Source: an uncultured Gammaproteobacteria bacterium (GTDB lineage: Bacteria; Patescibacteriota; Patescibacteriia; Magasanikbacterales; GWA2-37-8). Taken from it: DNA of 64,000 nucleotides. The notes beneath the pieces are model-generated. The model ran no database searches, had not been told where the DNA came from, and saw only the letters and a program-made list of their open reading frames with translations. Made by a program: the position numbers and the translations under genes. Of this stretch, positions 5,266 through 44,238 are shown one piece after another. Where the stretch lies: NCBI GenBank assembly GCA_964510495.1, contig CAZECR010000003.1, positions 550 to 64,549 of the forward strand. The letters run 5' to 3'. Positions within the stretch are counted from its first letter, which is position 1. The number at the start of each line of letters is the position of its first letter.

Positions 5266-5317
5266 TTATTTTTATGAACGAGGCGTAAAAGTGGGTGTTT
5301 GTTTGCTAAAAATCAAA

Positions 5318-5338
5318 AAGCTGTGTATAGTACAGCTT
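5318..5338 (+). terminator. Weak hairpin between the J-domain gene and lepB (aagctgt gtatagt acagctt), followed by a T-rich tract
   Basis: Inverted repeat read from the sequence. Confidence 0.3.
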
Positions 5339-5360
5339 GCTACTATTATTTTTCCTGCCT

Positions 5361-5954
5361 ATGTCTGACCAACCCCAAAGTCGTTTTTCATCGGCTGTTA
5401 CCAGTGCGGGGCTTTTTTTTCTCGAACTTGTTAAGGTCGTTGCTTTGGCCGGTATCACCATTTTCTTGGTGCGCTATTTTTTATTTAAGCCCTTTTATGT
5501 TAAGGGTGCTTCCATGGAGCCAACATTCTACGAAAAGGAATATTTAATCATCGATGAACTGAGTTACCGTTTGCATGATCCGATTCGAGGGGACGTTATC
5601 GTGTTCCGCCCACCGGAGGATCAAAAGGAATTTTTTTTGAAACGTATTATCGGTCTCCCGGGTGAGCGCGTAAAGGTGGCTGAAGGGCATGTTACAATTT
5701 ATAATGAAGCCCATCCCGAAGGAATAACACTTGACGAAACATATCTGCCCACAGATCTGGCAACTACCGGTGAACAAAATATTGTTTTAAATGCTGACCA
5801 GTACTTTGTACTTGGTGATAACCGGCCTAATAGTTACGATTCGCGCCGTTTTGGGCCGATCGCTCGTTCGAGCATGATCGGGCGTGCCTGGCTTCGCGGC
5901 TGGCCATTTGACCGTGTACAGACGTTCACCGCTCCTACCTATACTAATTTTTAG
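5361..5954 (+). CDS. lepB: Signal peptidase I (S26 family)
   Basis: Motifs GASMEPTF, LKRIIGLPGERV, GDNRPNSYDSRRFGPI. ATG at 5361; the track ORF starts at an upstream TTG. Confidence 0.85.
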   Translation: MSDQPQSRFSSAVTSAGLFFLELVKVVALAGITIFLVRYFLFKPFYVKGASMEPTFYEKEYLIIDELSYRLHDPIRGDVIVFRPPEDQKEFFLKRIIGLPGERVKVAEGHVTIYNEAHPEGITLDETYLPTDLATTGEQNIVLNADQYFVLGDNRPNSYDSRRFGPIARSSMIGRAWLRGWPFDRVQTFTAPTYTNF

Positions 5955-5981
5955 TTGACCGAACACTTAATTGAACTTGCT

Positions 5982-7752: not shown

Positions 7753-9774
7753 ATGCTTCAATGGATCAAACAAAATAACATGACGCTTCGAAAAACTGCC
7801 ACGGTCTTGGGGGTACTGTTAGTGGCAGTTTTTTCGTTTTTAAAACTAGCTCCTGCCCTGGCTCAAACTACTGTTGCACCAGAAGCACCAGTTGATACTG
7901 GTATCGAAGTTGTGCAGCAGCCGTCAGGCCTGGCAGCAACCGATATTCGTCAGATTATCGCTACCATTATTCGAGTAGCGCTTGGGCTTTTGGGTATTAT
8001 TTTACTTGGTCTCGTTTTGTATGGCGGTTATTTATACATGACTGCGGGCGGCAACGAAGAACAAGTAAGCCAAGCAAAAACTATTTTACGCAACGCTGTT
8101 ATCGGTCTTATTATTATTCTTAGTGCGTACGCTATTGTTACCTTTGTCTTGCGCGCACTCGGCCTTGGACAAGGAGCAGGTGGGGGAGACCTGGGCGGTA
8201 TTAACGGCACAGGTACCCAAAATTTTAATGGCAGTGGGGCACTCGGTGGTATTATTAAAGATCATTATCCAACTCGTGACCAGGTGGGAGTAGCCAGAAA
8301 TTCCAAAATTATTATTACATTCCGTAAGGCTATTAAAGTTGATAGTTTTGTTAAAAATACCAATCAAAGTAAAGATGCCAGTGGAAATGAAATTTTTGGT
8401 GACTGTATTAATATTGGGGTTAACATGAACTGGAAAACCGATTGTGACGCGCTTACCCTAGACGCAGATCACATTGCTATTACTCGGGCAGACACTGGGG
8501 CGGCTATTACTGGCGCAGCAGTCTTGGCTACCTACCAAGACGGTAAGGCGTATACCATTGTTATTAGGCCGTATGACTACTTGGGCTCAGGCACAGACAA
8601 AATTGCCTATAAAGTTCATATGGGTTCGGCAATTCAACTCGACGATGCTGCCAACAACAATCCTTCAGCCTTTCAGGTGAGTAGCCTCGGGAAAAATTAT
8701 TACGAATGGCAGTTTACCTGTAGCACCGAGCTCGACACTACGCCGCCAATTGTAAACAGTGTTTTCCCGTCAGATGGTGCAACGGAATCAAAAAATACGG
8801 TTATTCAAATTGATTTTAATAAAGCAATGGACCCGACAGGTATCCAGGGAACATTCCGTGATGGCTCCAATAGCTATGTTCTTGATGGTAATACTATTTT
8901 TCTAAAGAATAACAAAAGTACTATTCCACTTGGAACATTTAACCTGACTAACGGGTATCGCACGCTTGAATTTACTTCAACTAAAGAATGTGGTCGCAAT
9001 GCTTGCGGTCAGCCTATTTATTGTCTGCCGGTCTGTGATACGGCAAATGATCCTACCTGCAAACAAGATGATTATTCACTCTTAGTTAAAGCTGGCCGCA
9101 CGTTTAGCGCTTCGTCATTTGAATCAATTCCTTTTTCTGGAGCTATGGATGTTTCGGGTAATGCCCTCGACGCTAACAAAAATAGTAAAGTAGATGTTGC
9201 CCCGACGACAGGTGATATTTTCACCGTTCAGAATAAGCCTGATAACTATTCATGGGGTTTTACTGTTAAGGACGAAATTGATAATACTGCGCCGTATCTC
9301 ATGCAGGTTACTCCTGGACTTGATGCTGAATTTGTTGCTCCAAAAGATGATGTTACTATGCTATTTAGCAAGCGAATGCGTGTAGAGCCAATGTATGGTA
9401 TTGATTTACAGCAATCACTTGCGAATGCCGAGCCGCTCTGTCGCACGCCACGCCTGAATTTCAACGCAAATAATACAACGCTCACCACGCTAACCCACTG
9501 TCCTTTTCCAACTAAAGATGGGGCGAATTTTTATCCTGTACTTACTTCTGCGATCGAAGACGTGCACTATAACTGTTTTTTCCCAGGCAAAGGACCGGGA
9601 GGAACAACCGAAGTTAACAAGCGTCTTAAGGAATCCTCGCTGTGTAGTAGCGATGGTAAGAACTGCTGTCCGGTAGAAGCAGTTGGGGCAGGTGCGTTTT
9701 GCTGTAATGGGGTTGTTGTTCCAAATGTTGCGAATCAGGCTCAATGTTTGCAATATTTAAAATCGACTCCGTAG
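7753..9774 (+). CDS. Secreted/membrane surface protein with an N-terminal VirB2/TrbC-like pilin module and an SbsA-type Ig-like domain
   Basis: Signal peptide, then two hydrophobic helices flanking YGGYLYMTAGGNEEQ. A downstream segment NSVFPSDGATESKNTVIQIDFNKAMDPTG looks like Big_5/SbsA_Ig. An alternative ATG is at 7780. Confidence 0.7.
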   Translation: MLQWIKQNNMTLRKTATVLGVLLVAVFSFLKLAPALAQTTVAPEAPVDTGIEVVQQPSGLAATDIRQIIATIIRVALGLLGIILLGLVLYGGYLYMTAGGNEEQVSQAKTILRNAVIGLIIILSAYAIVTFVLRALGLGQGAGGGDLGGINGTGTQNFNGSGALGGIIKDHYPTRDQVGVARNSKIIITFRKAIKVDSFVKNTNQSKDASGNEIFGDCINIGVNMNWKTDCDALTLDADHIAITRADTGAAITGAAVLATYQDGKAYTIVIRPYDYLGSGTDKIAYKVHMGSAIQLDDAANNNPSAFQVSSLGKNYYEWQFTCSTELDTTPPIVNSVFPSDGATESKNTVIQIDFNKAMDPTGIQGTFRDGSNSYVLDGNTIFLKNNKSTIPLGTFNLTNGYRTLEFTSTKECGRNACGQPIYCLPVCDTANDPTCKQDDYSLLVKAGRTFSASSFESIPFSGAMDVSGNALDANKNSKVDVAPTTGDIFTVQNKPDNYSWGFTVKDEIDNTAPYLMQVTPGLDAEFVAPKDDVTMLFSKRMRVEPMYGIDLQQSLANAEPLCRTPRLNFNANNTTLTTLTHCPFPTKDGANFYPVLTSAIEDVHYNCFFPGKGPGGTTEVNKRLKESSLCSSDGKNCCPVEAVGAGAFCCNGVVVPNVANQAQCLQYLKSTP

Positions 9775-15800: not shown

Positions 15801-18800
15801 ACTACTAATAAGTACACCAGTGCTACTGGTCCGGTTGCTACCGGTAGTTCGCACGAAATTGTCTTCCTTTGTGAGAATCCATGGCCACCAAAAAGTATTT
15901 ATATTGATAACCAAGGGCCGTTTACTATATTCCCGTATCAGGATAAAGCAGGGAATAACGATGGTTTTGATCTTAGCGGCAATGTCTTTAACAATTCAAC
16001 CATTCCGGCTTCGATGGCCGTAATGGACGGGTACTTTAATTTTGGCACGTATTATTGTGCAGATAATGGTGCCACTGGAACAGCTGATGATTTGCCGTAC
16101 TTGCGACCCACAGTTCAAACGAGCGGAACAGCCATCTCAGCAACCGGCGCGCTCAAGAAGTTCTTCTTCACCAATGATAAAAATGCTGACGCTATCGGTA
16201 TTCAAGTTTTTGCCAACCCTAAACACTTGAGTCCGACCGACTGGTATTCGCTCAGTAAAGCAAATGGTGGACAAGGCTTTATTGGCAGTACGCAGAGTGT
16301 AAAAGTTGATGGTTATAACGCAATTACGGATGGTAACAACATCTATGTTGATGCGCTCAATTATTCAGCGGTCACCAAAAATATTTACAGCACTATTTAT
16401 CTCTTTAGTATTAATGCGAATGCGGACGCTTCAACTCGTAAAGTATTTGAGCAGCTTTTGACCAACCTTAATTTTAACTCCAATATTTCTAATTACGGCT
16501 ATTGCGGAACTAGTGTTGATAATCCTGGTTTCCAAACGCAGTGTCAGAGCGATATAGATTGTAATCAAGGGCAAGTTTGTTCCAACAGCATTGATAAATT
16601 AAAGCGTAATTACGATCGCTTGCATGGGCTTAATGCTTTTCAGGTAGCGCTCGCCAGTTATGCGGCGCAGCATGATAAAAAATATCCAAGCATGCAAGAG
16701 GGAAGTTATTTGACTGGCCAAACCGTTAGCACCTGGCCTTCGTGGGCAACACTTGGAAATACGCTAGGACAGAGTGCCCCAGTTGACCCTATTAACCGTT
16801 TGACTGCCGCTGGAACATGTTCAGTAAGCACTAATAAATTCTGTACGGTGAATGCTGACTGCGGTGGAACAGAAACCTGTGTACTCCATGATCCGATTAC
16901 GGCTTGGAGCGCTACTGATCGCCGATTTAGTTTTGCTTGTCCACCCGCTTCGTATGCGTATCGCTACGCTGCCGCATCTGCCGGAGCAAACTACACGGTA
17001 CGAGCAAGGTTTGAAAATACCGGCCTTAGCATTACCAATCAGGCTGCGTTTATGGCTGATTTTATTGATCCAACCAAATTTATTACCGATAGTAGCAATG
17101 GTATTTGTAATCAAGATCAGGAAATTGCCAGTCTTAATACCGGTGTGTGTGGGGACGGTGTTGTTAATACGGTTCGTGGTGAGCAATGTGATCCAGTTGG
17201 TCAGACACGCTATGGAGCTTGCAATGCAGATCAGAATGGTAAAATCAAAGTTGATGTATGTGATAGTTCGTGCCGCTGGAAGGCAGCCGATACTGCTTTT
17301 GTGGATTGTTCCTTCCTCAGTAAATGTGGTAATGGTGCGGTCGAAGTAGGGGAGAAATGTGACGACGGAAAGCTCAATGGGCGCTACAATCATTGTACGA
17401 CTAAATGTACGCTCCCGACTAAGGACGACGTTGGTTTTTGCGGCGATGGTGTCGTAGAAGCTAAATATGAAGTATGTGATATTCGAGCCATGATGGACGA
17501 TAAGCCAGGACTTTGTGTTGGCGGAGTGCGAACCGGACAGCCATGTTCAGTGTCCGTGGACTGTAATGCCGTAAATGGAGTGCAATCCTCGTATGGTGGC
17601 GTTTGCAAGTTGATTACCGAAGCCAAGATTAAATATGCCCAAACAAAGAGCGCTTCATGTAATTGGGATTGTCAGTCAACCGGCCCTTATTGTGGTGATG
17701 GAATAGTTCAAAGTGATTGGGGTGAAGACTGCGATGGCGCTACGAGTGCTTGTACTGTTGGAGATCAGGGTGGCAAACGTTCCTGTAGTACTTCATGCAA
17801 GTGGACTGATCCGAGTGCTGTTGCCTGGTGGAGATTTGATGAAGCCTCATTGAAAGATGATAAAATGACGTTCTCTGACGCGTCTGGAATTAACAAAGGT
17901 GTTTGCGACGGAGCTAAGAATGAATGCCCTGTATTTACAAATAGTGGAAAGTATAATGGTGCCTTTATATTTAGTGGTGGTAACTTTGTTACTGTTCCGC
18001 ACTATACATCCTTTGATGTTGCCAATGTTACCTTAGAAGCTTGGATTAAATTAATTCCCGGCACTGCAGAAGGCTGGAAAAACATTTTGCTTAAACAAAA
18101 TGGTTTAAATGCGATGGAAGCAGAGAAGGATTATAATTTCTCTTATTATAATACCGATAAAATTCTCAAGCTTGGTTTTTCTTCGCCCGGACGTTTTGGT
18201 AAGGCAGAAGGTGTGCTCCCAACAGGTCTTTCGGCGGGGGAATGGCACCATGTTGCTGTAACGGTCGCCAATAGTAGTGTTCATGCTATTAAGTTTTATG
18301 TCGACGGTAAGCCGCTAGCCGACGGTAACATCAGTATGAGTGATGCGGGTGTTATTGGTTTGTCTGCAGATCGAAATTATCCTGTGTATCTTGGTGGAAA
18401 TGGTGGTGTTGATGAGCTCAAAGTCTACGATCGTGTTCTGACGAGTAGCGAGGTGGCTGCTGAAGCGCAGAGCCCTTGGTTCTGTGCGCTTGGCGGAGCA
18501 GCGCTCGCGGTTGGTGACGGACCGCGTTGTGGGGATGCTAAAGTAGATACTGGTGAAGCCTGTGATAAAGGTGCTGCTAACGGACAAAGCTGTAACCCAA
18601 GTTACGGTAAAACCTGTGCATACTGCTCTAATGATTGTAAGAATATTATTGATGTTCAAGCCAAGACCTACTGCGGGGACGGTGTGGTACAAGGAACACC
18701 TTTTGGCAACGAAATCTGTGACATGGATGCAGTTAGTAAATCGGTGTATGTCTTAAGCGCTTCACCATTGACCGAAAACACCTTTAACGCAGCGCACGGT

Positions 18801-19931
18801 GGTTACAGACTATTGTCTTGTACAGAGCAGCCTCAAGATGATTATACTCAGAAAAAAGAAATAAGTGCTCCTGCCTGTGGCGCTGTCTGTGGTGTTCCAA
18901 CAAGTAACTGTGCTAAATGCGGTGTTGATTACACCAAAGGTGTTGGTATTGCTGGAGAACTCATCAACGTGCTTTCACCTACGAGCACCAATCCGCTCCT
19001 TGGTGGTGGTGGAGTAGTGTCAAGTTATGTGGTCGGAAATGTTGCTTATGGGGCTGTGACTGGGGGCAACCCTTCTTCAATGGACGTTTATATCGGCCTT
19101 GATATGGCGCCCAAAAAATTAGTTGCTCATACTGCTTGGGCTGCAGAATCTGATAAGAATTATGTTTTGAAAGATCCGGCTTTTGACGCAACAGCTACGG
19201 GTAATCAGGTCAAACTAAACAGCTACCCACTTTGTTCAACAGGGGACCCACGGTACACACTCCGTTTGAATGGAGATACTACTCACCGTTTCGATTTTCC
19301 AGTTTTTGCAGCTGTGTCTCCGGAACAGTACGATCTAGTCCTCTCGCCAGTCATTAATAATCAAGTTCGTCCAAATGATGTTCGCGTAGTCGTTAGTTGG
19401 GTGCGCGAGGCTGGTTTTTATGGTGGCTTTACTGTGCCTCTGGCAGGCAAAGGCAAGACCGAAGGTGCTACGTTTGCCGGTAAATTATCCAGTGGCCTTA
19501 CCTACTACAATGCCCCACGCATTAATGGTATCGGTTATCATGGTTTTGGTACCACTAAAAACAGCACAAACGAAGAAGCTTTCTTCGTAAATACAGATGC
19601 TAAACCGTATAATGGTACAACGGTTACTTCTGAAATGACTAATGACCAGTATGCATTTTATGTGCGCACAAGTGGTGAGAGTATTGCCAGATACAAAACA
19701 ACTGCTAAACTGCGCGTTGATGTATACTTCCCAGAAAATGATTCTGCCAATAATCATTTTGCTACCCCGGCAATGACTTTCTATATGAACAGTGCTTCGC
19801 CATCGGATAATCCAAATGCTAACTATTGGCACGTCTTTAATATCAAGCGAGCCACTGTACCGACTCCAGATCCGGTTACCAGCCGTATAATCCCGGTTAA
19901 TAAAATAGTTACTGAAAGTAAATTCTTTTAA
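9801..19931 (+). CDS. Giant (3376 aa) cysteine-rich surface protein. N-terminal VirB2/TrbC-like module, four IPT/TIG domains, SbsA-type Ig-like domains, a LamG/concanavalin-A-like domain, and three arrays of CGDGxVxxGExCD cysteine-rich repeats.
   Basis: Single open frame from GTG 9801. The N-terminus YGGFSYMTAGGDDEKVGSAKKIL is paralogous to the upstream gene. IPT/TIG-like segments GLSPNSGAPGTFVTVSGKYFG, ICALNPAVGKSGSAIALIGKNFG, TISTTSGARGEYITISGRNFG (about 11110-12200). LamG-like segment WWRFDE...LKVYDRVLTSSEV (about 17820-18470). Confidence 0.8.
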   Translation: MQRLALKKILFTVCFTLVVTLGSLTALWVVHAATPALDVGLNGDVAATTGLATTDVRLVVARIIRTVLGLLGIIALVIVLYGGFSYMTAGGDDEKVGSAKKILVNGGIGLLIILSSYAITSFVISRLVSATTGVDNGQNCTGPNCTDGSGGSGTGFNASGNAFYVSSLPSNGNLCIRNVHPSVVFSKEVDIATLSGNVVVSAVGGSAVSGKWEYGTKKAVVFFVPVGDCAPSTGQDCLLPKTSYTITFQNPSAIKSADGTQSLNCSIKGGCGPVTFTTGEGVDRLPPQITITEPLANASFQAGVAIPVTVSYTDDNGIQNVSVYQGAAVVGSKSVNGCQKTGSVELSWVTGGLDAGAYTLQALGTDWSGGQDTKNIAVNLKPNHCFNNQLEADLGEKQVGPTACGGECGSCAGESCTANADCGSGFCQVPAGGGAGVCIQRTTVNGLSPNSGAPGTFVTVSGKYFGSTGRIYFAAVANPNITKETDWVEAKAVSCGAGFNSWSSSQIIVEVPANAVPGPVAVFSGAATLKAAATANTSLFDTTRDAWGPLVGDFTVNDEVHPSICALNPAVGKSGSAIALIGKNFGLLSTTANQVTFGTAVAVTRPNDWVDALIKTTVPNLEQGTVTVRVTSNGRQSNAVTFSVQEGASETAPFINTISTTSGARGEYITISGRNFGSKLGAVWFKAAPTSEAILGSFDFPDSCQAAVWRDDQIIVKFPLDKGSVGTSYLLQIKTADDAVSAIDSNTTFALIAGTPNPGICKISPLSGTVPFAAGQVLTLSGEYFGTQPGIYFWKASANTADMSSRALTAATDITSRSNSTISLRPPAGAQTGPVVVVRGEDSKVSNPINFTVGSCVQNNNTCPVSGYTCCSSGADAGSCKPAGELCSQGVRSAGYVWRFSSAAIPVVPHVVERCDAGTDQGRNLPSPSPSIQWDQSANGDSHNVCRTALATVELTALIDQKTVTKDTVIVNKCSGVDEKNNCLNPVRVDLTTDSYGVKTAMTDSGGSPHAFLQVGPATRSWEDNTWYQVALTSGIRSAGSASSTALALAADRPCQIAGSAYCYVFKTDTKNCALKAVVVTPYSYWTKVLESPIKLRTSAGSATELYYRGNGLSNQRCIMMDVSGFNWQWNSENTGYAAMYGSVNAPVSQVSALANTVAIGLTNPDEAINIVAVASTGTASYAGKSPLTIDLSDPGVVDYWPRCLEACTNAEVAVRFNTTMSLRNLPGTIQGGSVQLLKCTDENCLSTQSVVNLNDITLDPTSNYSVLKIANSLTGSQLLEPNTLYKVVVSTASTDPAAATNQLWSAAKLNDPQTSSKPFNQEFTWRFRTKNGQCQVDKAVVNPPEFFGKSIAEKTVYTVQPYAAPDSCSTQGQKLNPWSVSWNWSSADSKVASVTSFSTKGNNPSCTPSCIRKGSDVPATQANVVPVCGNGKVEAGEDCDGPDSAKGCALNCLFAGNTAATCGNGIVEPNLGEACDPKDPKTATGCSLSCRHLGSSVTTDASNTNASICGNSSIGSGEDCDTGITKSVANPLSQLNCSQKCLHTGSRLSKQWCIANALTRGGFSGTEFDAACGLSFSQCGDRVLTPDEDSGCDDPNTGWNSGACTQYCLKKTSTECVPGTEGCDANGRHTGSSLLYSTPSSCGDGTAGTGEDAVCETGLVINHSGLIDPWTLATGVGLGTPKGVPAAQTTFVKAVTNQNNRSVSGSGVFSVACGYQTDLDCKRTFGSDYSVGENTCCYRKPGLISTYPANNAATVCPNTYLEAVFDSKIDENTLTGNVLIARGGNTTCAAGQQDVTNLIARTESYIALPWYKKVLAQAVAAFKNVFLGSDVAALVTPVTNWCVGQDIGVARVAPVVGAPTSTSRISIQINTPLAFTTDYAVILKEGVKDTNGVSIGKLATKNISWHFSTSDKICEVNKVTVNPPEWSFSVANATTTLEAAAFTSNGSKVQPIPGFYDWQYRWGPIDNPYVSLQTTNTTLNVITAQNRNGEIDLRAEANITTNKYTSATGPVATGSSHEIVFLCENPWPPKSIYIDNQGPFTIFPYQDKAGNNDGFDLSGNVFNNSTIPASMAVMDGYFNFGTYYCADNGATGTADDLPYLRPTVQTSGTAISATGALKKFFFTNDKNADAIGIQVFANPKHLSPTDWYSLSKANGGQGFIGSTQSVKVDGYNAITDGNNIYVDALNYSAVTKNIYSTIYLFSINANADASTRKVFEQLLTNLNFNSNISNYGYCGTSVDNPGFQTQCQSDIDCNQGQVCSNSIDKLKRNYDRLHGLNAFQVALASYAAQHDKKYPSMQEGSYLTGQTVSTWPSWATLGNTLGQSAPVDPINRLTAAGTCSVSTNKFCTVNADCGGTETCVLHDPITAWSATDRRFSFACPPASYAYRYAAASAGANYTVRARFENTGLSITNQAAFMADFIDPTKFITDSSNGICNQDQEIASLNTGVCGDGVVNTVRGEQCDPVGQTRYGACNADQNGKIKVDVCDSSCRWKAADTAFVDCSFLSKCGNGAVEVGEKCDDGKLNGRYNHCTTKCTLPTKDDVGFCGDGVVEAKYEVCDIRAMMDDKPGLCVGGVRTGQPCSVSVDCNAVNGVQSSYGGVCKLITEAKIKYAQTKSASCNWDCQSTGPYCGDGIVQSDWGEDCDGATSACTVGDQGGKRSCSTSCKWTDPSAVAWWRFDEASLKDDKMTFSDASGINKGVCDGAKNECPVFTNSGKYNGAFIFSGGNFVTVPHYTSFDVANVTLEAWIKLIPGTAEGWKNILLKQNGLNAMEAEKDYNFSYYNTDKILKLGFSSPGRFGKAEGVLPTGLSAGEWHHVAVTVANSSVHAIKFYVDGKPLADGNISMSDAGVIGLSADRNYPVYLGGNGGVDELKVYDRVLTSSEVAAEAQSPWFCALGGAALAVGDGPRCGDAKVDTGEACDKGAANGQSCNPSYGKTCAYCSNDCKNIIDVQAKTYCGDGVVQGTPFGNEICDMDAVSKSVYVLSASPLTENTFNAAHGGYRLLSCTEQPQDDYTQKKEISAPACGAVCGVPTSNCAKCGVDYTKGVGIAGELINVLSPTSTNPLLGGGGVVSSYVVGNVAYGAVTGGNPSSMDVYIGLDMAPKKLVAHTAWAAESDKNYVLKDPAFDATATGNQVKLNSYPLCSTGDPRYTLRLNGDTTHRFDFPVFAAVSPEQYDLVLSPVINNQVRPNDVRVVVSWVREAGFYGGFTVPLAGKGKTEGATFAGKLSSGLTYYNAPRINGIGYHGFGTTKNSTNEEAFFVNTDAKPYNGTTVTSEMTNDQYAFYVRTSGESIARYKTTAKLRVDVYFPENDSANNHFATPAMTFYMNSASPSDNPNANYWHVFNIKRATVPTPDPVTSRIIPVNKIVTESKFF
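14085..14775 (+). repeat. Array of cysteine-rich repeats, CG(N/D)GxVExGE(D/A)CD, resembling Myxococcus-type Cys-rich repeats, inside the giant gene. Further arrays lie at about 17148-17800 and 18530-18730.
   Basis: Repeated peptides CGNGKVEAGEDCDG, CGNGIVEPNLGEACD, CGDRVLTPDEDSGCDD, CGDGVVNTVRGEQCD, CGNGAVEVGEKCDDG, CGDGIVQSDWGEDCDG, CGDAKVDTGEACDKG. Confidence 0.6.
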
Positions 19932-30180: not shown

Positions 30181-30231
30181 AAAGAACTCTTTTAAAAAAG
30201 TTCTTTTTTGTACGGCCGAGAGGTCGGCCGT
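30181..30231 (-). terminator. Compound terminator: GC hairpin acggccga-gagg-tcggccgt plus an AT hairpin with T-runs, downstream of the G+C-rich gene 30238-30609
   Basis: Inverted repeats read from the sequence; T-runs on both strands. Confidence 0.55.
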
Positions 30232-30237
30232 GATTGG

Positions 30238-30609
30238 TTAGAAGAGAAAGAGCATGGCCTGTCTGAGGCTCGTAAACAAGTCGTCTTCCGTCTTCGGAAA
30301 GCGCTCGCCGGCCAAGATGCCTTTGATGTTGTTGTACTGGCGAGCGAGGTATTCACTGTCCCGCTGCCTGAAAGCGCCCTCACACCAGATCAGGAGGGGT
30401 TTCTTGAGGTGTGCTGTAGTCCGCAGCAATGCTGCTGTCTCGTCGAAGTTCCTGGTTATAAGAACGATGAGGTTGATCGGACTCATGAGCGCACCGGGCG
30501 CCGCGCTCTCTGTAGTGACCGTGTGGTAACCTTTCTGGCGAAGCTGGGCTGCAAATCCTTCGCGTCGCTCTGTCTGCTCTTTTGAGCTGATCAGGAGTAT
30601 GTTTGACAT
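30238..30609 (-). CDS. Hypothetical G+C-rich protein with Rossmann/flavodoxin-like alternation of hydrophobic strands
   Basis: MSNILLISSKEQ...LIVLITRNFDE pattern. GAGGTG RBS 7 nt before the ATG (complement of 30607-30609). The + strand ORF 30208-30585 is rejected as the antisense artefact. Confidence 0.5.
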   Translation of the reverse strand: MSNILLISSKEQTERREGFAAQLRQKGYHTVTTESAAPGALMSPINLIVLITRNFDETAALLRTTAHLKKPLLIWCEGAFRQRDSEYLARQYNNIKGILAGERFPKTEDDLFTSLRQAMLFLF

Positions 30610-30653
30610 GGTGGGCACCTCGTGGCGATTAGTTTAGTGGGTGAGTTGGTAGG

Positions 30654-30698
30654 TTGTCAAATGGATCATATTGACAAAAGTCAATTTTTATGATAGAA
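30654..30698 (+). promoter_or_regulatory. Promoter TTGACA-16-TAGAAT overlapped by the palindrome TTGTCAA-atggatcat-ATTGACAA, upstream of the lipoprotein gene
   Basis: Hexamers and inverted repeat read from the sequence. Confidence 0.4.
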
Positions 30699-30778
30699 TC
30701 CTTTATTCTTCATGCATACGCACGAGGAGAATAGATAAGAATTCAGTGCACGTTTTGGCCTCAAAAAAGGAGCTGTAC

Positions 30779-31177
30779 ATGAAGAGGTATTGGTTCTGTA
30801 GCGCACTGCTAACGACAGTGCTTGGCTGTGGCGCCTGCAACGAGGCGGATTTCCCGGCGACCGACGAGCCACCCCCGTCCGCGCTGCCTGACCCTGGCGA
30901 CCCCGGTTCCTGCGCCAGCGAGCAGACGCGCCTCGGCTGGGTGGACGGGTGGCGCTTCTGCTATCCTGAGTCCTCACCAGATCTGGTGGCCAGCTATCAC
31001 TTCGTGATGAACCCTTACTACACCCGCAATGGGTGCAGCATCGCGAACGATGTGGGGCCTGCGACGCTTGCCTTCATGTCGAAGGCGACGACCAACAGCC
31101 AGGCCGGCGACTGGAACTTCGAGTCCTACTGGATGGGGCTCGTGACCAAGATGATCTGCCACAACCCAAAGCGCTAG
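30779..31177 (+). CDS. Small G+C-rich secreted lipoprotein (lipobox LGCGAC), six cysteines, unknown function
   Basis: MKRYWFCSALLTTVLGCGAC signal/lipobox; AAAGGAG RBS. The track ORF carries a spurious N-extension from 30671. Confidence 0.55.
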   Translation: MKRYWFCSALLTTVLGCGACNEADFPATDEPPPSALPDPGDPGSCASEQTRLGWVDGWRFCYPESSPDLVASYHFVMNPYYTRNGCSIANDVGPATLAFMSKATTNSQAGDWNFESYWMGLVTKMICHNPKR

Positions 31178-31295
31178 GCGCTTCCCAAGGAGACAACCGA
31201 CACTGCTCTTCTGCCCCAGGAAGGCAAGGTGTGTGACGCGTCTGTCTCCGTTTCTACTTTGGTAGCAATGATTGTTAGAAGAGTAGAGAAGGCTT

Positions 31296-31334
31296 TAAAA
31301 TAAAAATAGTCCCTAGAGACTATTTTTATTTTTT
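31296..31334. terminator. Bidirectional terminator: aatagtc cctaga gactatt flanked by A/T runs. It overlaps the last codons of elp3.
   Basis: Hairpin read from the sequence. Sits between convergent lipoprotein (+) and elp3 (-). Confidence 0.5.
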
Positions 31335-32968
31335 AGATTTTTTACCATATACGTATTCTCCAGCTCATATCCCCACTTACGATAGTAGTCACGAACACCA
31401 ACTCCAGAAATAACAGCGAGTTTATCAACGCTGTGCTCGGTGACAATTGCTTCCGCTTTTTCCAATAATTTTTTACCAAGTCCTTTATGTTGACTTTGGT
31501 TGTCGTCTTTGACGCCAATGTTCAATAATTTTCCGTAGGTGTGGAGTTCGCGAATATATGCGGGGTAGCGAATCGCTTCTTTCGGCAATTCACTCGACGC
31601 AAAATCAACAATACGCAAACGACAAAAGGCAAATACTACCGTACGATCTTTATCTTCAAAGCTCAGGAAATATTCGGTGCCACCGTGCGTGTCGTACTCG
31701 TCAACAAATAAATGCGGCGTCAGATCAGAAATTTTATTCAGATCCACGTGACCCACTTCGCGGCAACGTAAACAGCGGCACGGCGTGCCTAATTTTTTTA
31801 AGCGCAGTTGTACCACTTGGCGAAGGTTGGTGACAGTATTTCCCTCTTCAATATATTGACCCGGGATATCACGAATAAGACGCGAAATACGGGCATAATA
31901 GGGGATAGTTGGTTTAAATTTCACCAAAATATCGATCAGGTCTTCTACGGAGTACGCGGTATATTTTCCTTGCAAAAACCATTCGTAGAGTTCAGAATTT
32001 TTGACAACGGTACATGGATAAATTTTGATCATGTCGGGTTTATATCCAGGGTCAGAAAAAATAGTCTGCATCATTTTTAAATCCGCTTCCGGGGTTGCGC
32101 CAGGTAGTTGTGGCATCAGATGTGCATCAACTTTGAATCCGTAGTTGCGGAGGAGTTCCATGGAACGCATTGCTTCTTTGCTCCCGTGACCGCGTTTTGT
32201 CAGTTCTAAAATAGCATCATCAGTATGCTGAATGCCAAGTTCAATACGCGTACAGCCCATTTCACGCATCTGCCAAATGGTGTGGTAGTTAATACAGTCT
32301 GGACGTGTTTCGAGTGTAAGGCCAATAATGCGATGTTTAGCGGTCTCGTTAATGGTTTGCTGTTTCGCAAGTTCAGCTTTAATTTCTACAAGGGGGGAGT
32401 CTTCGGTGAGTGTTGAAATAGTTACTCCTTCTTGGCCGAGTGTATTACATGCTTCAAAAGATTTCAAAATAAACCAATATTGATATTGGAGGGTATACGA
32501 ATTCCAAGTTCCGCCTTTGACAATAAATTCAATCTTGTCTGCGGGGTGTCCGTTATTTTGGAGGGCTTCAATGCGGCGGGCCATTTGTTCGTAAGGATTA
32601 AACTCGAGCATGAGGGCGCGCATGGCGGCTGGTTCTTCGGACAAGTAGCTCTTGGGCATCCGTTCGTCAAAGGGGCAGTACACGCATTGACCAGGGCAAG
32701 GATACGGTTTAATGAGTGACGTGATCACCGCCACCCCTGAGAGGCTTCGTACGGCCCGGCGCATGAGCATACGCTCCAAATGTTCGCTGGGTAAAATCTT
32801 GTTATTTTTGACTAAATCATGATATGCTACCAGCAGTTCTGTCTTGTCCGGGAGGTTCGTTTCTGGTTTTTCACCGGCCATTAAGCTGCGTTTAAGGACG
32901 TTAAAACCTTCCTCCGTTGTGGGAAGTTTTTCTAGAGCAGCAAGAATTATTTTTTCAGTTAATGACAC
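31313..32968 (-). CDS. elp3: Elp3-like radical SAM enzyme with a C-terminal GNAT acetyltransferase domain (tRNA U34 cm5 modification family)
   Basis: CPGQCVYCP radical-SAM cysteine motif. The C-terminus RKWGYELENTYMVKNL matches the Elp3 KAT-domain terminus. The GTG start at 32968 is preferred because the upstream TTG at 33004 would overlap the divergent gene. Confidence 0.8.
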   Translation of the reverse strand: MSLTEKIILAALEKLPTTEEGFNVLKRSLMAGEKPETNLPDKTELLVAYHDLVKNNKILPSEHLERMLMRRAVRSLSGVAVITSLIKPYPCPGQCVYCPFDERMPKSYLSEEPAAMRALMLEFNPYEQMARRIEALQNNGHPADKIEFIVKGGTWNSYTLQYQYWFILKSFEACNTLGQEGVTISTLTEDSPLVEIKAELAKQQTINETAKHRIIGLTLETRPDCINYHTIWQMREMGCTRIELGIQHTDDAILELTKRGHGSKEAMRSMELLRNYGFKVDAHLMPQLPGATPEADLKMMQTIFSDPGYKPDMIKIYPCTVVKNSELYEWFLQGKYTAYSVEDLIDILVKFKPTIPYYARISRLIRDIPGQYIEEGNTVTNLRQVVQLRLKKLGTPCRCLRCREVGHVDLNKISDLTPHLFVDEYDTHGGTEYFLSFEDKDRTVVFAFCRLRIVDFASSELPKEAIRYPAYIRELHTYGKLLNIGVKDDNQSQHKGLGKKLLEKAEAIVTEHSVDKLAVISGVGVRDYYRKWGYELENTYMVKNLKNKNSL

Positions 32969-32978
32969 AATAGAAGCT

Positions 32979-33710
32979 ATGGTAGATTTAATCCAAAAAA
33001 CCAAGGAAGATTATGATGCGATTGCCGAGGCCTTTGCCGGTACCCGTTTTGAGGCCGGATCGGATCTAGTAGAGTTTAAACCATTTATTCGCCCGGGTCA
33101 ACGCGTCCTTGACTGGGGGTGTGGCAACGGCCGTTTGTTATACTTACTTGATCAAACCCTGACTGAGCTTGACCCAACCCTCCACGGTCCAGCCCGGCTC
33201 GATTATTCTGGGGTAGATCAGAGCGAAGAACTCTTGAAAATAGCTCAAAAAACCTTTGAACATTTAGTGGACGATGCCCAGGTGCGTTTTTTTTCAACCG
33301 CTGATTCAGAAAAGAAATTTCCGGAAAGCTCCTTCGATGTCGCATACTCGATCGCTTCGTTTCATCATTTGCCTGATTCACTTTCTCGCTTTTCACTCCT
33401 TAAACAGATCTACTCAGAACTTGCTCCGGGTGGGCAACTTCTTCTCACCGTCTGGAATTTAACCAGTGATTGGGCTGAAAAACAAAAATCCAAATGGACC
33501 GAGCTTAATAGTCATGATTATTTGATTCCTTGGAAAGATGGTGAGGGTGAAGTCTTGGCGGATCGCTATTATCATGATTTTCAACTTCCAGAACTCACCG
33601 AACTTATAGAGCAAGCTGGATTTACGATTGAAAAAATGTACTATGCGACAGCCGGTAAAGAAGTGGATAGTCACAAAGGAAAAAATATTGTGGTGATTGC
33701 TAAAAAATAG
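32979..33710 (+). CDS. Class I SAM-dependent methyltransferase, Trm9/ALKBH8-like (candidate tRNA mcm5U methyltransferase)
   Basis: Motif I VLDWGCGNGR; FDVAYSIASFHH; GGQLLLTVWN; YLIPW; DRYYHDF. These resemble Trm9-family signatures as recalled from memory. ATG at 32979; the track ORF has a spurious 5' extension. Confidence 0.7.
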   Translation: MVDLIQKTKEDYDAIAEAFAGTRFEAGSDLVEFKPFIRPGQRVLDWGCGNGRLLYLLDQTLTELDPTLHGPARLDYSGVDQSEELLKIAQKTFEHLVDDAQVRFFSTADSEKKFPESSFDVAYSIASFHHLPDSLSRFSLLKQIYSELAPGGQLLLTVWNLTSDWAEKQKSKWTELNSHDYLIPWKDGEGEVLADRYYHDFQLPELTELIEQAGFTIEKMYYATAGKEVDSHKGKNIVVIAKK

Positions 33711-34977: not shown

Positions 34978-35025
34978 GTCGTCGTCGGCGAGGAGCGCCG
35001 ACGACGGGTGGTGTGAATGGATCTC

Positions 35026-35466
35026 CTAGCGCAGCGCTGTGGCAAAGCTATCTATGTCTGACTTCGGCTCTGCCGAGAAGGCGAAGATGACTGTGTGGAG
35101 CCGGGGTGTAGCGGCCCTCATGTTCGCGATATGCTGCTCGAGGGCGCTCTTGACCCGCAGACAGATGTCGTCCCAGAGGTTCAGGAAGCGCGGCATTGGA
35201 ATCATGACCGCACCCATGCCGTCTGCTTCGGCCTCGGTGAGGCACTGCAGCACAGCGCGCTCGACCTCCTCGTAGCACTGGCCGCTGTCGTACTCGGTGG
35301 TCGACACGAGGCGATCGTTGGCCTGGGGATTGGCTCGCTCCCACTCTATGCATTCAATGGCGGAGGAGCTGAACCCGATCTCGGCGATTCGATCGGTAGG
35401 CACCCCTGCGTCGGTGACTGTGATAACGATGGTCAGGGGACCCATGTTCATCGTATGTCCGCTCAT
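35026..35466 (-). CDS. Hypothetical G+C-rich protein (147 aa) inserted between two GT4 genes
   Basis: GGAGG RBS 5 nt before the ATG (complement of 35464-35466). Open frame in GC-rich DNA; no recognised motif. Confidence 0.45.
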   Translation of the reverse strand: MSGHTMNMGPLTIVITVTDAGVPTDRIAEIGFSSSAIECIEWERANPQANDRLVSTTEYDSGQCYEEVERAVLQCLTEAEADGMGAVMIPMPRFLNLWDDICLRVKSALEQHIANMRAATPRLHTVIFAFSAEPKSDIDSFATALR

Positions 35467-35521
35467 AAAGCCTCCACTGGTTTTGACGATCCTTTCAAGC
35501 CTCACTAAGGCCTAAAAGCAT

Positions 35522-38183: not shown

Positions 38184-38552
38184 ATGACCGCAGCCGAGAA
38201 ACACGCAAAGCACTTTCCCAACTGCACCCATGCCCTGGCCGGCACTCAGTCAGAGGACTACGCAGTGGTTTTGAAAACAGGTGTGCGGTGCCGCGCCTGT
38301 AGCGAAATCTTCAATGATGATTGCCAGATTCAGATTGCCAGAACCGAAAGGATCGTCACGAGCCACCTCGTCGACCTTGAGGTCATCCGGCAGATGATCA
38401 AAGACCTCCGTGGCAGACCGGGCGGGGAAGCCATGATCGATCAGATCATGAGTGATAACCGCGATCATCCTGATTGCACAGCGATTGAGCAGGTGATCGA
38501 GGAGGTCAGAAAAAGGCCGGTGAGCAATCCGGAGATGGCTCGAGTGGCGTGA
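38184..38552 (+). CDS. Hypothetical G+C-rich protein with an N-terminal Cys/His cluster (possible zinc ribbon)
   Basis: GGGAGG RBS followed by ATG 38184; C..H...CRAC pattern. It is followed by a nested inverted repeat at 38562-38625. Confidence 0.45.
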   Translation: MTAAEKHAKHFPNCTHALAGTQSEDYAVVLKTGVRCRACSEIFNDDCQIQIARTERIVTSHLVDLEVIRQMIKDLRGRPGGEAMIDQIMSDNRDHPDCTAIEQVIEEVRKRPVSNPEMARVA

Positions 38553-38701
38553 AAACGCGTGTATCGTCTAGAGTAGTAGCCGGTGTCCTTCGGGACGCGG
38601 CGCTGCTCTAGACGATCGTTCAGCTCTGTACAAAAATATTTTTTGCCCACAGCCGAACTAACTTCTCTTTGAACATAGTCTTTGCTATACTGAAGAAAGC
38701 T

Positions 38702-40787: not shown

Positions 40788-40970
40788 TTATACCCTTGAC
40801 GGAGTAGCAAAAAAGTGGTACCCAACAATATCCATAAAAATTGATTGTTCTTTTGATTGTGCAATAGTTTTGAACCGTTAAGGAGCAGGGGGCAGTGTGC
40901 AGTATCACGATTGGTACGACGCACTGCCTTCTGTTTCGAAGTTTCCACCCTCTTCTCCAGGAGAAGTACG

Positions 40971-41540
40971 ATGCCCTCGAAAGTTCCTCCGTTTTCCACA
41001 GTGAACCTGTTCTGTTTTGCAACGCTCCATGAGCTGAAGCCCACCAAGCGACGCGGTCCGACTATGCTCGCTGGCACCCGGGTGCGGGCGCTGTTCGACC
41101 AGCGCCAAGACCTGGTCGTTCCGGGGGTTGTGGTCATCTCGTCCAAGGCGAAGGGTGACGCGCTTGCCTTGCTGGACGGGATGCGTGTCGCCGCGTCAGT
41201 CGTGCGCAAGCCACTTCTACCGCCGCCCGCGCAGACTACACTCTGCCGCGATGCCATGAGCGCTATCCGCGCGAAGAGCCTGCCCTCCCTGCTCGTCGTG
41301 GCGGATCCCCTCACTCTTTTTACCTTCCTCGATGAGGCAGTGATGCTTCCGGAAGGGTCGAGCTGGCTTATCTACTACCAGGAGGCTTACCCACGCATAA
41401 TGGGGTCTTTGTATCAGATTGAGGTCTCGTTCAACGAGCGGGGAGCAAGGGCGGTCAGCATGCTCAGTCACGGCAACATGACGGGCGACCGGGTGCGTGG
41501 AGGCGGGTCGCTTATCCCTGCTATGGCGCGGGCGGCCTAG
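40971..41540 (+). CDS. Hypothetical G+C-rich protein (189 aa) immediately downstream of tRNA-Val
   Basis: AGGAGA RBS followed by ATG 40971. Followed by a GC hairpin + T-run at about 41570-41600. Confidence 0.45.
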   Translation: MPSKVPPFSTVNLFCFATLHELKPTKRRGPTMLAGTRVRALFDQRQDLVVPGVVVISSKAKGDALALLDGMRVAASVVRKPLLPPPAQTTLCRDAMSAIRAKSLPSLLVVADPLTLFTFLDEAVMLPEGSSWLIYYQEAYPRIMGSLYQIEVSFNERGARAVSMLSHGNMTGDRVRGGGSLIPAMARAA

Positions 41541-41667
41541 GTACTATTTCTCAATTTTCGCGCTCTTTCGTCGGCGGCCAGGTTCTCTGGCCGCCGTTCT
41601 GTTTTTAAAAACAATCTGTAATAAAAAGTAAAAATACGCTATACTATATGCATATTTATTTTTTTTC

Positions 41668-42834: not shown

Positions 42835-43089
42835 TTCGCTATATGCTGTTGTATAATTTGTACATAAGCGTATACTTTGTTATAAGCGTTGTGTTTTTAG
42901 TCGTAAGATGGTGTTAGTTGTTGGCTGATTACATTGTTTGCCACGGTCGATCAAACAATTATTGTTCAACAACTTCCTTGGCCCTGCCTATCGGCAGACA
43001 GGTTCGCTCATGCTCTGAAGAGCGCTGGCTGCCAGCTTCTATCTACTACTAAAAATAAAACACGCATTGTTTTATTTTTTTGTATTTGT

Positions 43090-44238
43090 ATGTCTCATTT
43101 TATTTTTACATCGGAATCTGTAACCGAAGGGCACCCCGATAAAATATGTGATCAGATTTCCGATGCTATTCTCGATGAAATTCTCAAACAAGATAAAAAT
43201 GCTCACGCTGGCATTGAATGTTTTACGACCACTGGCCTCGTTATTATTGGCGGGGAAATTAAAACAACTGCCACTATCGATGCGCAAAAAATTGCACGCC
43301 GCGTCTTACATGATATTGGATACACAAGTGCGTGCTATGGCATTGACGCCGAGTACAGCAGTATTATGTCGACGATTCACCAGCAGTCACCTGACATCGA
43401 TCAAGGAGTTACGCGGGGAAGTGTCGAAAAACAAGGAGCGGGGGACCAAGGACTTATGTTCGGTTATGCGAGTAACGAAACATCCGAACTGATGCCCCTT
43501 CCGATTAGCTTGGCGCACGCACTCGCTCGTCGCCTCACAGAAGTTCGTAAGAAAAATATTTTGAAGTATCTTCGGCCCGATGGTAAAACCCAAGTGGCTA
43601 TCGAATACATTGATAATAAACCAGTGCGTTTAAAAAATGTAGTCGTGTCAGCGCAGCATGATGAAAAAGTTTCGCTATCGCAATTACGAGCAGATATTAT
43701 TAAGCACGTTATCAAACCCGTGTGTGCTCAGTATATCGACGCTCAAACAGAATTTCACATTAACATGACGGGTCGTTTTGTAATTGGCGGTCCTCATGGG
43801 GACGCTGGTCTTACTGGCCGTAAGATTATTGTCGACACCTATGGCGGCATGGGGCGGCACGGTGGTGGGTGTTTTTCGGGTAAGGATGCTTCCAAGGTTG
43901 ATCGGTCGGGTGCGTACATGGCGCGGTATGTCGCCAAGAATATTGTAGCTGCCGGTCTTGCCGAGCGTGCTGAAGTTCAGATTGCCTACGTCATTGGGAG
44001 GGCCGAGCCAACAAGTATAGCGGTACATACATTTGGTACTGGTAAAATTGCCGACGAGCAATTGGTTAAGCTGGTTTCTGCCGTTTTTGATTTTCGTCCC
44101 GGGAAAATAATTGAGCACCTGCAACTGCTACGTCCAATCTATCGTTCTACGGCTACCTATGGCCATTTCGGTCGACCTGAATTTCCCTGGGAAAAAATTG
44201 ATCAGATTAAAAAACTTCAGCAATTAGCTAAGAAATAA
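43090..44238 (+). CDS. metK: S-adenosylmethionine synthase
   Basis: [36 protein letters not shown] and other MAT signatures. ATG 43090; the track ORF has a spurious 5' extension into the leader. Confidence 0.9.

Follow-up and report, generated by a model that had tools for sequence, protein, structure and literature searches.

The locus, from a bacterium of the candidate phyla radiation, lies in a window of 64,000 nucleotides, the whole stretch of DNA that was analysed, and is made up of two genes arranged head to head. The minus-strand gene encodes an Elp3 protein with radical-SAM, Radical_SAM_C and GNAT/KAT domains, while the plus-strand gene encodes a class I SAM-dependent methyltransferase. 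As the first-pass annotation had recorded, both genes are present with start codons 10 bp apart on opposite strands, and the peptides it had listed were all recovered, CPGQCVYCP and GYELENTYMVK in the minus-strand ORF and VLDWGCGNGR, FDVAYSIASFHH, GGQLLLTVW, YLIPW and DRYYHDF in the plus-strand ORF. The features of the locus are the following.

31297..31332, A/U-rich hairpin of 16 bp overlapping the Elp3 stop codon, with A and T runs on either side, a candidate bidirectional terminator
31313..32968, minus strand, Elp3 gene, GTG start at 32968, 551 aa
31463..31492, minus strand, codons of the acetyl-CoA-binding GNAT motif A, Q-H-K-G-L-G-K-K-L-L, read from the sequence
32675..32698, minus strand, codons of the radical-SAM [4Fe-4S] motif, C-P-G-Q-C-V-Y-C (CxxxCxxC), read from the sequence
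32969..32978, spacer of 10 bp between the divergent start codons, AATAGAAGCT
32979..33710, plus strand, gene for the Trm9-like class I SAM-dependent methyltransferase, ATG start at 32979, 243 aa
33073..33101, minus strand, candidate Elp3 promoter within the methyltransferase coding region, TTGACC-17 nt-TAAACT, 9/12 matches in a consensus scan
33105..33134, plus strand, codons of SAM-binding motif I, V-L-D-W-G-C-G-N-G-R, read from the sequence
33363..33368, plus strand, codons of H129-H130, equivalent by alignment to ScTrm9 H115-H116, which position the cm5U carboxylate (role from PMC4678810)

The maximal ORFs of the two genes overlap, running from 31313 to 33004 on the minus strand for Elp3 (with a TTG at 33004) and from 32844 to 33710 on the plus strand for the methyltransferase. 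The starts chosen here, GTG at 32968 and ATG at 32979, are those supported by homology. GTG occupies the equivalent Elp3 codon in the closest relatives (loci L005 and L006), and the same 10-bp gap appears in an independent gene call on an identical contig.

Judged by its sequence, the minus-strand gene is an intact Elp3. The NCBIfam model TIGR01211 (ELP3) scores 526.9 bits against a cut-off of 350, with residues 63-557 covering model positions 38-522, and the Pfam models Radical_SAM (57.7 bits) and Radical_SAM_C (66.8 bits) both exceed their cut-offs. The Pfam GNAT models are weak on this protein (19.5 against a cut-off of 20.7) and also fall just short for other Elp3 proteins. The nearest solved structures are Dehalococcoides mccartyi Elp3 (DmcElp3, 5l7j, E 7e-114) and the archaeal MinElp3 (E 1e-110), with both of which the protein aligns end to end. 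In this alignment, CPGQCVYC falls on C23, C27 and C30 of DmcElp3, and QHKGLGKKLL on its QHRGLGRKLL, the motif being QHxGxG. The cluster spacing given in the first-pass annotation, CxxxxCxxC, has to be corrected, since the window protein and Dehalococcoides Elp3 both have CxxxCxxC (C-PGQ-C-VY-C in the window). Using the list of DmcElp3 key residues and zinc cysteines in PMC6367351, the equivalents of K77, K193, E386, H388 and Y441 are all identical in the window, and three zinc-binding linker cysteines of the prokaryotic type are present, TPCRCLRCREVGH aligning with DmcElp3 QKCRCIRCREYGH. The acetyl-CoA-site residues are all kept, and the KAT domain, the lack of which the first-pass annotation had named as counter-evidence, is intact (alignment with DmcElp3; PMC6367351). 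Finally, the window protein carries an N-terminal extension of ~68-70 residues that is absent from DmcElp3 and that has been linked to tRNA binding in archaeal Elp3 (PMC6367351). In vitro, recombinant DmcElp3 is only very weakly active (PMC7663514), and the absence of the extension has been suggested as one cause; the window supplies a bacterial Elp3 in which it is present.

The plus-strand gene encodes a Trm9-type enzyme, predicted from its sequence and modelled fold to be a cm5U34 carboxyl methyltransferase. An AlphaFold2 model of the protein (pLDDT 91.7) has a Rossmann fold. The closest solved structure is that of Yarrowia Trm9 (5cm2_Z), both by phmmer (E 2.3e-12, next 2.9e-7) and by a family profile run against solved structures (E 5.5e-27, 97.8 bits; next 3.5e-21, 78.8 bits), with an identity of only ~27%. 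It also comes first by Foldseek of the predicted fold (E 3e-15, target-normalised TM-score 0.79), with a small margin over other methyltransferases, the Rossmann methyltransferase fold being generic. Eight residues of ScTrm9, R29, D72, H116, W145, W168, R241, Y243 and N271, each abolish function in vivo when substituted by alanine (PMC4678810). All eight are identical in the window (R23, D80, H130, W159, W185, R196, Y198 and N236, of which D80, the equivalent of D72, is the SAM-binding acidic residue), as are H115 (H129 in the window) and Y18 (Y12). Across an alignment of 32 family members (A1), the functional residues are invariant or nearly so; H129-H130 and D45, G47, C48 and G49 of motif I do not vary, while Y198 is changed to V or I and Y197 to C or V in a few divergent members. 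The proposed resemblance to the Trm9/ALKBH8 family is thus borne out by sequence, profile and fold, all of which place Trm9 as the closest solved relative, and by the retention of the essential residues.

The two genes are consistently linked. Collection by the methyltransferase profile alone gave 80 loci from species-representative genomes, and Elp3 lies immediately upstream and divergent in all 78 that could be assessed (78/80 in total); in the remaining two, the methyltransferase is within ~110 nt of a contig end and its upstream side is not visible. This adjacency is far beyond chance. The lineages bearing the pair are Patescibacteria, including Magasanik-, Komeili-, Kerfeld- and Nealsonbacteria and others, and the divergent synteny is kept down to 33% methyltransferase identity. 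In a family-profile search, the best 120 matches listed all belonged to the Patescibacteria family. The same divergent pair recurs in four of five informative Dehalococcoidia loci, from Dehalococcoides mccartyi and three others, so the synteny that the first-pass annotation had asked about is conserved from Patescibacteria to Dehalococcoidia. The Dehalococcoidia methyltransferase is ~25% identical to the Patescibacteria family, retains the Trm9 residues and is matched by hhalign to the family profile (probability 99.8%, E 2.6e-29); in the D. mccartyi locus (L085), it occupies 5283..5957, divergent from and directly upstream of Elp3 with a gap of 43 bp. When all ORFs of 81 loci were clustered, no third gene was found to be as conserved as the pair. 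SHMT, glycosyltransferases and pyruvate kinase near the pair reflect Magasanikbacteria synteny and are gone in distant lineages, where the flanking genes turn over. Viral contigs gave a single weak, generic methyltransferase match. Many of the related database records are labelled 'uncultured Gammaproteobacteria', which is at odds with their gene content and named relatives.

Trm9 of eukaryotes and of Haloferax requires the partner Trm112. A crude six-frame motif screen of the window and of 84 loci detected no Trm112-like ORF, nor was one found in 80 relatives up to 10 kb from the pair. Pfam likewise placed no Trm112 among the adjacent small genes or, in L013, L061 and L083, among the genes that separate the pair; an HD domain and a PD-(D/E)XK nuclease were matched, and otherwise there was no match. 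The earlier remark that no Trm112-like partner is adjacent therefore agrees with both the motif screen and Pfam, and the methyltransferase is a candidate Trm9 that may work without Trm112, which would help in explaining the dependence of eukaryotic Trm9 on an activator.

Taken together, the pair is probably a self-contained two-enzyme module for the tRNA wobble uridine (U34), converting cm5U34 to mcm5U34 as in eukaryotes and archaea; we infer both the tRNA substrate and this product from sequence comparison. In the first step, the KAT domain of Elp3 would hydrolyse acetyl-CoA, and a SAM-derived 5'-deoxyadenosyl radical made at the [4Fe-4S] cluster would serve to carboxymethylate U34 at C5, yielding cm5U34. 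Elp3 would work alone, without Elp1, Elp2 and Elp4-6, like archaeal Elp3. In the second step, the divergent methyltransferase would use SAM to esterify the carboxyl group of cm5U34 to give mcm5U34, or mcm5s2U34 if these tRNAs are also substrates of a 2-thiolase. There is precedent in archaea, as archaeal Elp3 alone makes cm5U in vitro, mcm5U has been reported in Haloferax, and Elp3 and Trm9 cluster in Sulfolobus solfataricus (PMC2584109, PMC5372719, PMC7663514). The locus predicts that bacterial tRNA carries mcm5U34. According to a 2020 review from the Elp3 structural community, bacteria have given no evidence of xcm5U derivatives, and for Dehalococcoides it says explicitly that neither biochemistry nor mass spectrometry has shown cm5U or mcm5U (PMC7663514).

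Elp3 could also make cm5U34 while its partner does something else, acting at another tRNA position or forming a different xcm5U, so that mcm5U would not be the final product. The Thermoplasma product is ncm5U rather than mcm5U (PMC5372719), and the U34 derivative of H. volcanii was described as similar but not identical to mcm5s2U (PMC2584109). However, the residues proposed in Trm9 to hold the cm5U carboxylate (R29, H116 and R241) and those proposed to read the uracil ring (H115, N271 and W145) are all kept (PMC4678810), which argues for the same substrate and chemistry as Trm9 and makes such a different product unlikely.

It is very unlikely that the methyltransferase instead has no connection with tRNA, being a UbiE-type or generic small-molecule enzyme that adjoins Elp3 as a chance result of genome compaction. 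Its fold is common to many small-molecule methyltransferases; Pfam and NCBIfam, neither of which has a Trm9-specific model, return nothing more specific than generic methyltransferase families, with a weak Ubie_methyltran match among them, and names given to homologues by JGI are mixed, several being TRM9 and others UbiE. Yet the NCBIfam models for UbiE/MenG, CmoA, CmoB and BioC reach only 17-32 bits against cut-offs of 103-275 (UbiE/MenG 24-32 against 158-216), and Trm9 comes first among solved relatives, so the grouping with UbiE or small-molecule methyltransferases that would have spoken against a Trm9 identity is not seen. Moreover, all catalytic and substrate-binding residues of Trm9 are kept, and the linkage to Elp3 is unbroken in the assessable loci despite the turnover of neighbours and recurs in Dehalococcoidia.

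In bacteria, MnmL and MnmM form a U34 route that pairs an Elp3-like radical-SAM enzyme with a methyltransferase, and mnmL adjoins mnmM in Bacillus. That the window pair is this MnmL (YtqA) and MnmM route to mnm5(s2)U, rather than an Elongator-type one, is highly improbable. TIGR01212 (MnmL/YtqA) is the second-best NCBIfam match of the Elp3 gene, but with 66.9 bits against a cut-off of 180 and over residues 222-383 only, far from the score of TIGR01211; the window protein has a complete KAT domain with acetyl-CoA-site residues, whereas MnmL lacks one, and the methyltransferase bears the signatures of Trm9, not of MnmM. The historical 'histone acetyltransferase' view, in which Elp3 would be a protein lysine acetyltransferase and the methyltransferase would act on protein, has a next to negligible probability. 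In its favour are the GNAT superfamily membership of the KAT domain and PDB entries of the archaeal enzyme that still carry this title; against it, the partner methyltransferase bears uridine- and carboxylate-recognition residues.

The predicted mcm5U34 module resembles several known systems. With eukaryotic Elongator and Trm9-Trm112 or ALKBH8-TRMT112, it has in common the two-domain architecture and key residues of Elp3, and with eukaryotic Trm9 the fold, all essential residues and the same predicted two-step chemistry. In contrast to the eukaryotic system, the locus lacks Elp1, Elp2 and Elp4-6, no Trm112 was detected nearby, the methyltransferase has neither the AlkB nor the RRM domain of ALKBH8, the genes are physically paired and the host is bacterial. 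Another carboxyl methyl esterification at U34 is performed in E. coli by CmoM, the cmo5U carboxyl methyltransferase. The CmoM, CmoA and CmoB models all remain below cut-off at the window, and the products of CmoM and of the MnmL/MnmM route differ, being mcmo5U or mnm5U as opposed to mcm5U. Among archaea, reports of Trm9 orthologs are confined to Sulfolobales and Halobacteriales, and those of Haloferax (HvoTrm9-Trm112) work with Trm112. Archaeal stand-alone Elp3 likewise lacks the other Elongator subunits and has the zinc-binding cysteines and the N-terminal extension, and in Sulfolobus solfataricus Elp3 and Trm9 are likewise linked in the genome (PMC2584109, PMC6144793). As a further difference from archaea, the host is bacterial; the pair is near-universal here across a large bacterial radiation, head to head and with a spacer of almost zero. 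Within bacteria, DmcElp3 (5l7j, 5l7l, 6ia6) has the CxxxCxxC and zinc motifs in common with the window protein, and this structurally characterised enzyme has the same partner next door, a divergent Trm9-like methyltransferase directly upstream.

A 2020 review placed bacterial Elp3 in one clade, Dehalococcoides (PMC7663514), and the first-pass annotation had called bacterial homologues rare; in uncultivated lineages they are not. It had also regarded the pair as undescribed in bacteria. No description of a bacterial Elp3-Trm9 pair was found in the full-text literature, the coverage of which excludes Glatt et al. 2016 (PMC5018218), and no paper there was found to join Elp3 with Patescibacteria or the candidate phyla radiation on this topic, so that part stands, whereas the clustering of Elp3 with Trm9 was already known in the archaeon S. 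solfataricus (PMC2584109). What is added is a full-length Elp3 that is tightly coupled to a Trm9-type methyltransferase gene throughout a large bacterial radiation, the gene pair being kept in ~80 species.

The head-to-head arrangement apparently serves the joint inheritance and expression of both genes. The 10-bp spacer is too short for a promoter or ribosome-binding site of either gene, and we infer that the promoters of each would have to sit within the coding sequence of the other. Compact junctions are the rule among relatives, the start-to-start gap being at most 20 bp in 54 of 78 loci and many gaps being 0 or -2, as opposed to the ordinary intergenic gaps of 43-160 bp in Dehalococcoidia. 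In most relatives, but not in the window, the first 12 methyltransferase codons spell TTGTAA-17-TATAAT on the Elp3 strand; this arises through synonymous codon choice and resembles a promoter placed within coding sequence. If so, the layout would give a clear natural example, in very small genomes, of coding sequence put to two uses. The window has instead the candidate at 33073..33101, ~105 nt upstream of the Elp3 GTG. Both of its hexamers are kept in L005 and L006, but with no more than three sequences to compare, all closely related, this is weak evidence. In the other direction, 37 of 53 compact loci carry a -10-like NATAAT placed 18-34 nt ahead of the methyltransferase start, yet the case for a methyltransferase promoter inside Elp3 stays weak because the Elp3 'EKII' codons are without strong synonymous constraint. 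It could be speculated that Patescibacteria and Dehalococcoidia make mcm5U34 or mcm5s2U34 by two proteins, with a Trm9 that dispenses with Trm112 and possibly in place of MnmE/MnmG, and that most Patescibacteria do so from head-to-head genes with a zero-length spacer and an Elp3 promoter (TTGTAA-17-TATAAT) written into the synonymous choices of the first 12 methyltransferase codons; taken as a whole, this wider proposal is tentative and we lean somewhat against it. At the opposite end of Elp3, the candidate terminator hairpin has a predicted RNA fold of -15 kcal/mol, compared with a mean of -4.8 for shuffled sequences (z = -5.1).

The first-pass annotation had placed an Elp3 gene head to head with a Trm9-like methyltransferase gene, and both genes (Elp3 at 31313-32968, minus strand; methyltransferase at 32979-33710, plus strand) were found with all the peptide motifs it quoted, except that the cluster motif is spaced CxxxCxxC and not CxxxxCxxC as it gave. 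Its reading of the two genes is upheld by a TIGR01211 match, retained Trm9 residues and conserved linkage. The ORF scan returned the following maximal ORFs:

31313..33004, minus strand, maximal ORF of the Elp3 gene
32844..33710, plus strand, maximal ORF of the methyltransferase gene

These overlap because they are drawn out to the most upstream possible start codons. The methyltransferase protein starts at ATG 32979 (plus strand; N-terminus MVDLIQKTKEDY...) and Elp3 at GTG 32968 (minus strand). The latter fits the N-terminal position of the homologs, with GTG at the same codon in L005 and L006, the closest relatives of the window, and ATG in more distant ones, and an independent gene call on an identical contig also picked it, again giving a 10-bp gap.

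The minus-strand gene encodes an intact Elp3. The protein scores 526.9 bits against NCBIfam TIGR01211 (cut-off 350); the next family is MnmL/YtqA with 66.9 bits (cut-off 180), and a MnmL/MnmM-type route is not favoured by the tests. Pfam detects Radical_SAM and Radical_SAM_C, with weak GNAT matches. The top solved relative is Dehalococcoides mccartyi Elp3 (DmcElp3, 5l7j; E 7e-114), followed by the Elp3 of Methanocaldococcus infernus (E 1e-110) and by Elp3 subunits from eukaryotes (E 1e-90 to 1e-94). In a structure-sequence alignment, three cluster cysteines and three linker zinc cysteines are kept, as are the equivalents of K77, K193, E386, H388 and Y441, the acetyl-CoA site in DmcElp3 numbering (PMC6367351). 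DmcElp3 has no N-terminal extension, whereas the window Elp3 has ~68 residues before the conserved core; an extension of this kind has been linked to tRNA binding in archaeal Elp3 (PMC6367351).

For the plus-strand protein, Pfam and NCBIfam return generic class I methyltransferase matches only, and on the curated UbiE, MenG, CmoA, CmoB and BioC models it stays well short of the cut-off. Against all solved structures, the single sequence ranks Yarrowia lipolytica Trm9 (5cm2 chain Z) first (E 2.3e-12; next 2.9e-7), as does a profile of 32 family members (E 5.5e-27, 97.8 bits; runner-up 78.8 bits). Foldseek with an AlphaFold2 model (pLDDT 91.7) also places this chain first (E 3e-15, target-normalised TM-score 0.79), by a small margin over other Rossmann methyltransferases. 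The strongest test of Trm9 identity is the comparison of residues. Yeast Trm9 R29, D72, H116, W145, W168, R241, Y243 and N271 are each required in vivo; in the model proposed by Létoquart et al., the cm5U carboxylate is held by R29, H116 and R241, and the uracil is read by H115, N271 and W145 (PMC4678810). In a MAFFT alignment, R23, D80, H130, W159, W185, R196, Y198, N236 and H129 of the window protein are identical to yeast R29, D72, H116, W145, W168, R241, Y243, N271 and H115, and across the 32 family members these positions are invariant except Y198. A methyltransferase of generic type is not favoured by these tests, and the gene is, judged by its sequence, that of a Trm9-type methyltransferase.

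A search with the methyltransferase profile alone against one genome per bacterial or archaeal species gave 181 confirmed matches, the best 80 of which were taken with 10-kb flanks. A tblastn with the window Elp3 places Elp3 directly upstream, on the other strand, in 78 of these 80 loci; the remaining two are cut off by a contig end within ~110 nt of the methyltransferase. Synteny among these best 80 persists down to 33% methyltransferase and 41% Elp3 identity. The named records comprise Magasanikbacteria, Komeilibacteria, Kerfeldbacteria, Nealsonbacteria, Saccharibacteria-labelled bins and 'Patescibacteria group'. Clustering of every ORF in the fetched loci found no third gene as conserved as the pair: SHMT, glycosyltransferases and pyruvate kinase recur among closer relatives only, while the flanks of distant lineages differ, and where the two are separated by an insertion, the inserted gene is unrelated, coding for an HD-domain protein, a PD-(D/E)XK nuclease or a product without family match. 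L005, L006, L008 and ~30 other loci are TPA metagenome-assembled genomes titled 'uncultured Gammaproteobacteria', and one is titled 'Candidatus Udaeobacter'; this taxonomy is probably a placeholder or wrong, as gene content and named relatives are those of Patescibacteria/Magasanikbacteria.

The pair extends beyond Patescibacteria. Using a DmcElp3 query reconstructed from the structure alignment, a 224-residue methyltransferase (5283-5957 in the D. mccartyi locus L085) was found divergent from and 43 bp upstream of Elp3 in the complete genome CP019867. It matches the Patescibacteria family profile with an hhalign probability of 99.8% (E 2.6e-29). Three more Dehalococcoidia loci share the arrangement, one lacks it, and in another Elp3 sits at a contig end with its neighbour out of view; the Trm9 residues are kept in all four methyltransferases. 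No mention of this neighbour of DmcElp3 was found in the literature examined.

With each gene taken from the start codon closest to its homology-supported N-terminus, 54 of the 78 loci have a divergent gap of no more than 20 bp, and in 27 of those it is 0 or negative; common gaps are 0 (CATATG) and -2, where the two start codons share two bases (CATG), as in several distant loci (L068, L069, L071, L078, L081, L038). A gap of -2 is the tightest head-to-head layout possible without overlap beyond the start codons. Such spacers are too short for a promoter or Shine-Dalgarno site, and the signals of each gene must therefore sit within the other gene. A conserved N-terminal Ile-Ile of the methyltransferase is encoded as ATT ATA in 46 of 50 loci, against ~13% expected from Ile codon usage over the rest of these genes (ATT 537, ATA 249, ATC 218), and in 22 of 26 clusters after collapsing at 70% protein identity. 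Read on the Elp3 strand, the two codons spell TATAAT, a hexamer that in most loci ends 15-29 nt ahead of the start codon of Elp3, implying a short leader. Eight codons downstream of Ile-Ile, an invariant Tyr is TAC in 45 of the 46 ATT ATA loci (elsewhere in these genes TAT 484 vs TAC 135, 22% TAC), giving TTGTAA on the Elp3 strand exactly 17 nt upstream of TATAAT. This codon-choice signal spans related loci L007-L082 (for example L012 9986-10021) and points to a putative Elp3 promoter of the sigma-70 type that, in most relatives, would lie within the first 12 codons of the methyltransferase gene. Neither the window nor its two closest relatives has the element (codons TTA ATC ... TAT). Two features of the window are listed here:

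33101..33073, minus strand, candidate Elp3 promoter TTGACC-17-TAAACT, ~105 nt upstream of the Elp3 start
31297-31332, A/U-rich 16-bp hairpin overlapping the Elp3 stop codon and bordered on either side by A and T runs (z = -5.1)

The former, common to these three close sequences, is a weak promoter candidate, and the case for a reciprocal promoter, driving the methyltransferase from within Elp3, is even weaker. The hairpin could act as a transcription terminator in both directions. A glycosyltransferase gene begins 9 nt past the methyltransferase stop and, given this spacing, is probably co-transcribed.

What is demonstrated for the pair is that both proteins belong to their families, have intact active sites and are encoded in conserved linkage. 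Elp3 alone, as in archaea, would draw on acetyl-CoA and a SAM-derived radical to turn U34 into cm5U34, whereupon the Trm9-like enzyme would methyl-esterify the side chain to yield mcm5U34. This two-step route, with its inferred substrate and product, is likely, and the function is that expected for the Elp3 and Trm9 families; neither protein acetylation as the role of Elp3 nor an end product other than mcm5U is favoured by the tests. Trm9 is activated by Trm112 in eukaryotes and Haloferax (PMC6144793). As the first-pass annotation had remarked, no Trm112 is adjacent: a crude six-frame motif screen found no Trm112-like ORF in the window and 84 loci, and a Pfam scan none among the small genes neighbouring the pair. 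The Trm9 of the pair may work without Trm112. Both enzymes consume SAM, and the SAM synthetase gene metK (42934-44238) lies ~9 kb away, while in L089 (4071-5279), which is labelled Bacteroidota, both metK and a gene for AdoHcy hydrolase lie a few genes from Elp3; this proximity may be coincidental.

Eukaryotes and archaea offer well-known examples of the chemistry and of both enzyme families, and Elp3-Trm9 gene clustering in Sulfolobus solfataricus was noted in 2008 (PMC2584109; repeated in PMC5372719, PMC6144793). A 2020 review placed bacterial Elp3 in one clade, Dehalococcoides, with evidence for xcm5U there lacking, and does not mention Trm9 (PMC7663514); a 2026 paper describes 'numerous bacteria' with only Elp3, and Trm9 appears solely in its reference list (PMC13315578). 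No description of a bacterial Elp3-Trm9 pair was found in the literature, and automated annotation names the proteins separately (NCBI, Elp3 for this protein type; JGI, TRM9 for some methyltransferases). What the locus adds is a conserved bacterial module, a Trm9 that may be free of Trm112, and a promoter layout that is unusual; the breadth of bacterial pairing and the overlooked DmcElp3 neighbour are notable and directly testable for the tRNA-modification field.

Elsewhere in the window, short GC-rich islets with small ORFs occur at 30200-31200, 35000-35500, 38200-38600 and 40800-41600 (GC 0.55-0.64 vs a background of ~0.43), and a lipoprotein-like ORF in one of them (30671..31177) adjoins the Elp3 3' end. 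Three ORFs scanned at 30200-31200 and 35000-35500 had no Pfam match, and the islet genes may be recently acquired or fast-evolving. Two adjacent genes (7753-9774, 673 aa; 9801-19931, 3376 aa) encode large secreted proteins; in each, a T4SS-pilin-like segment at the N-terminus precedes Big_5, Big_7, TIG and Laminin_G_3 domains. Patescibacteria typically have giant surface proteins like these.
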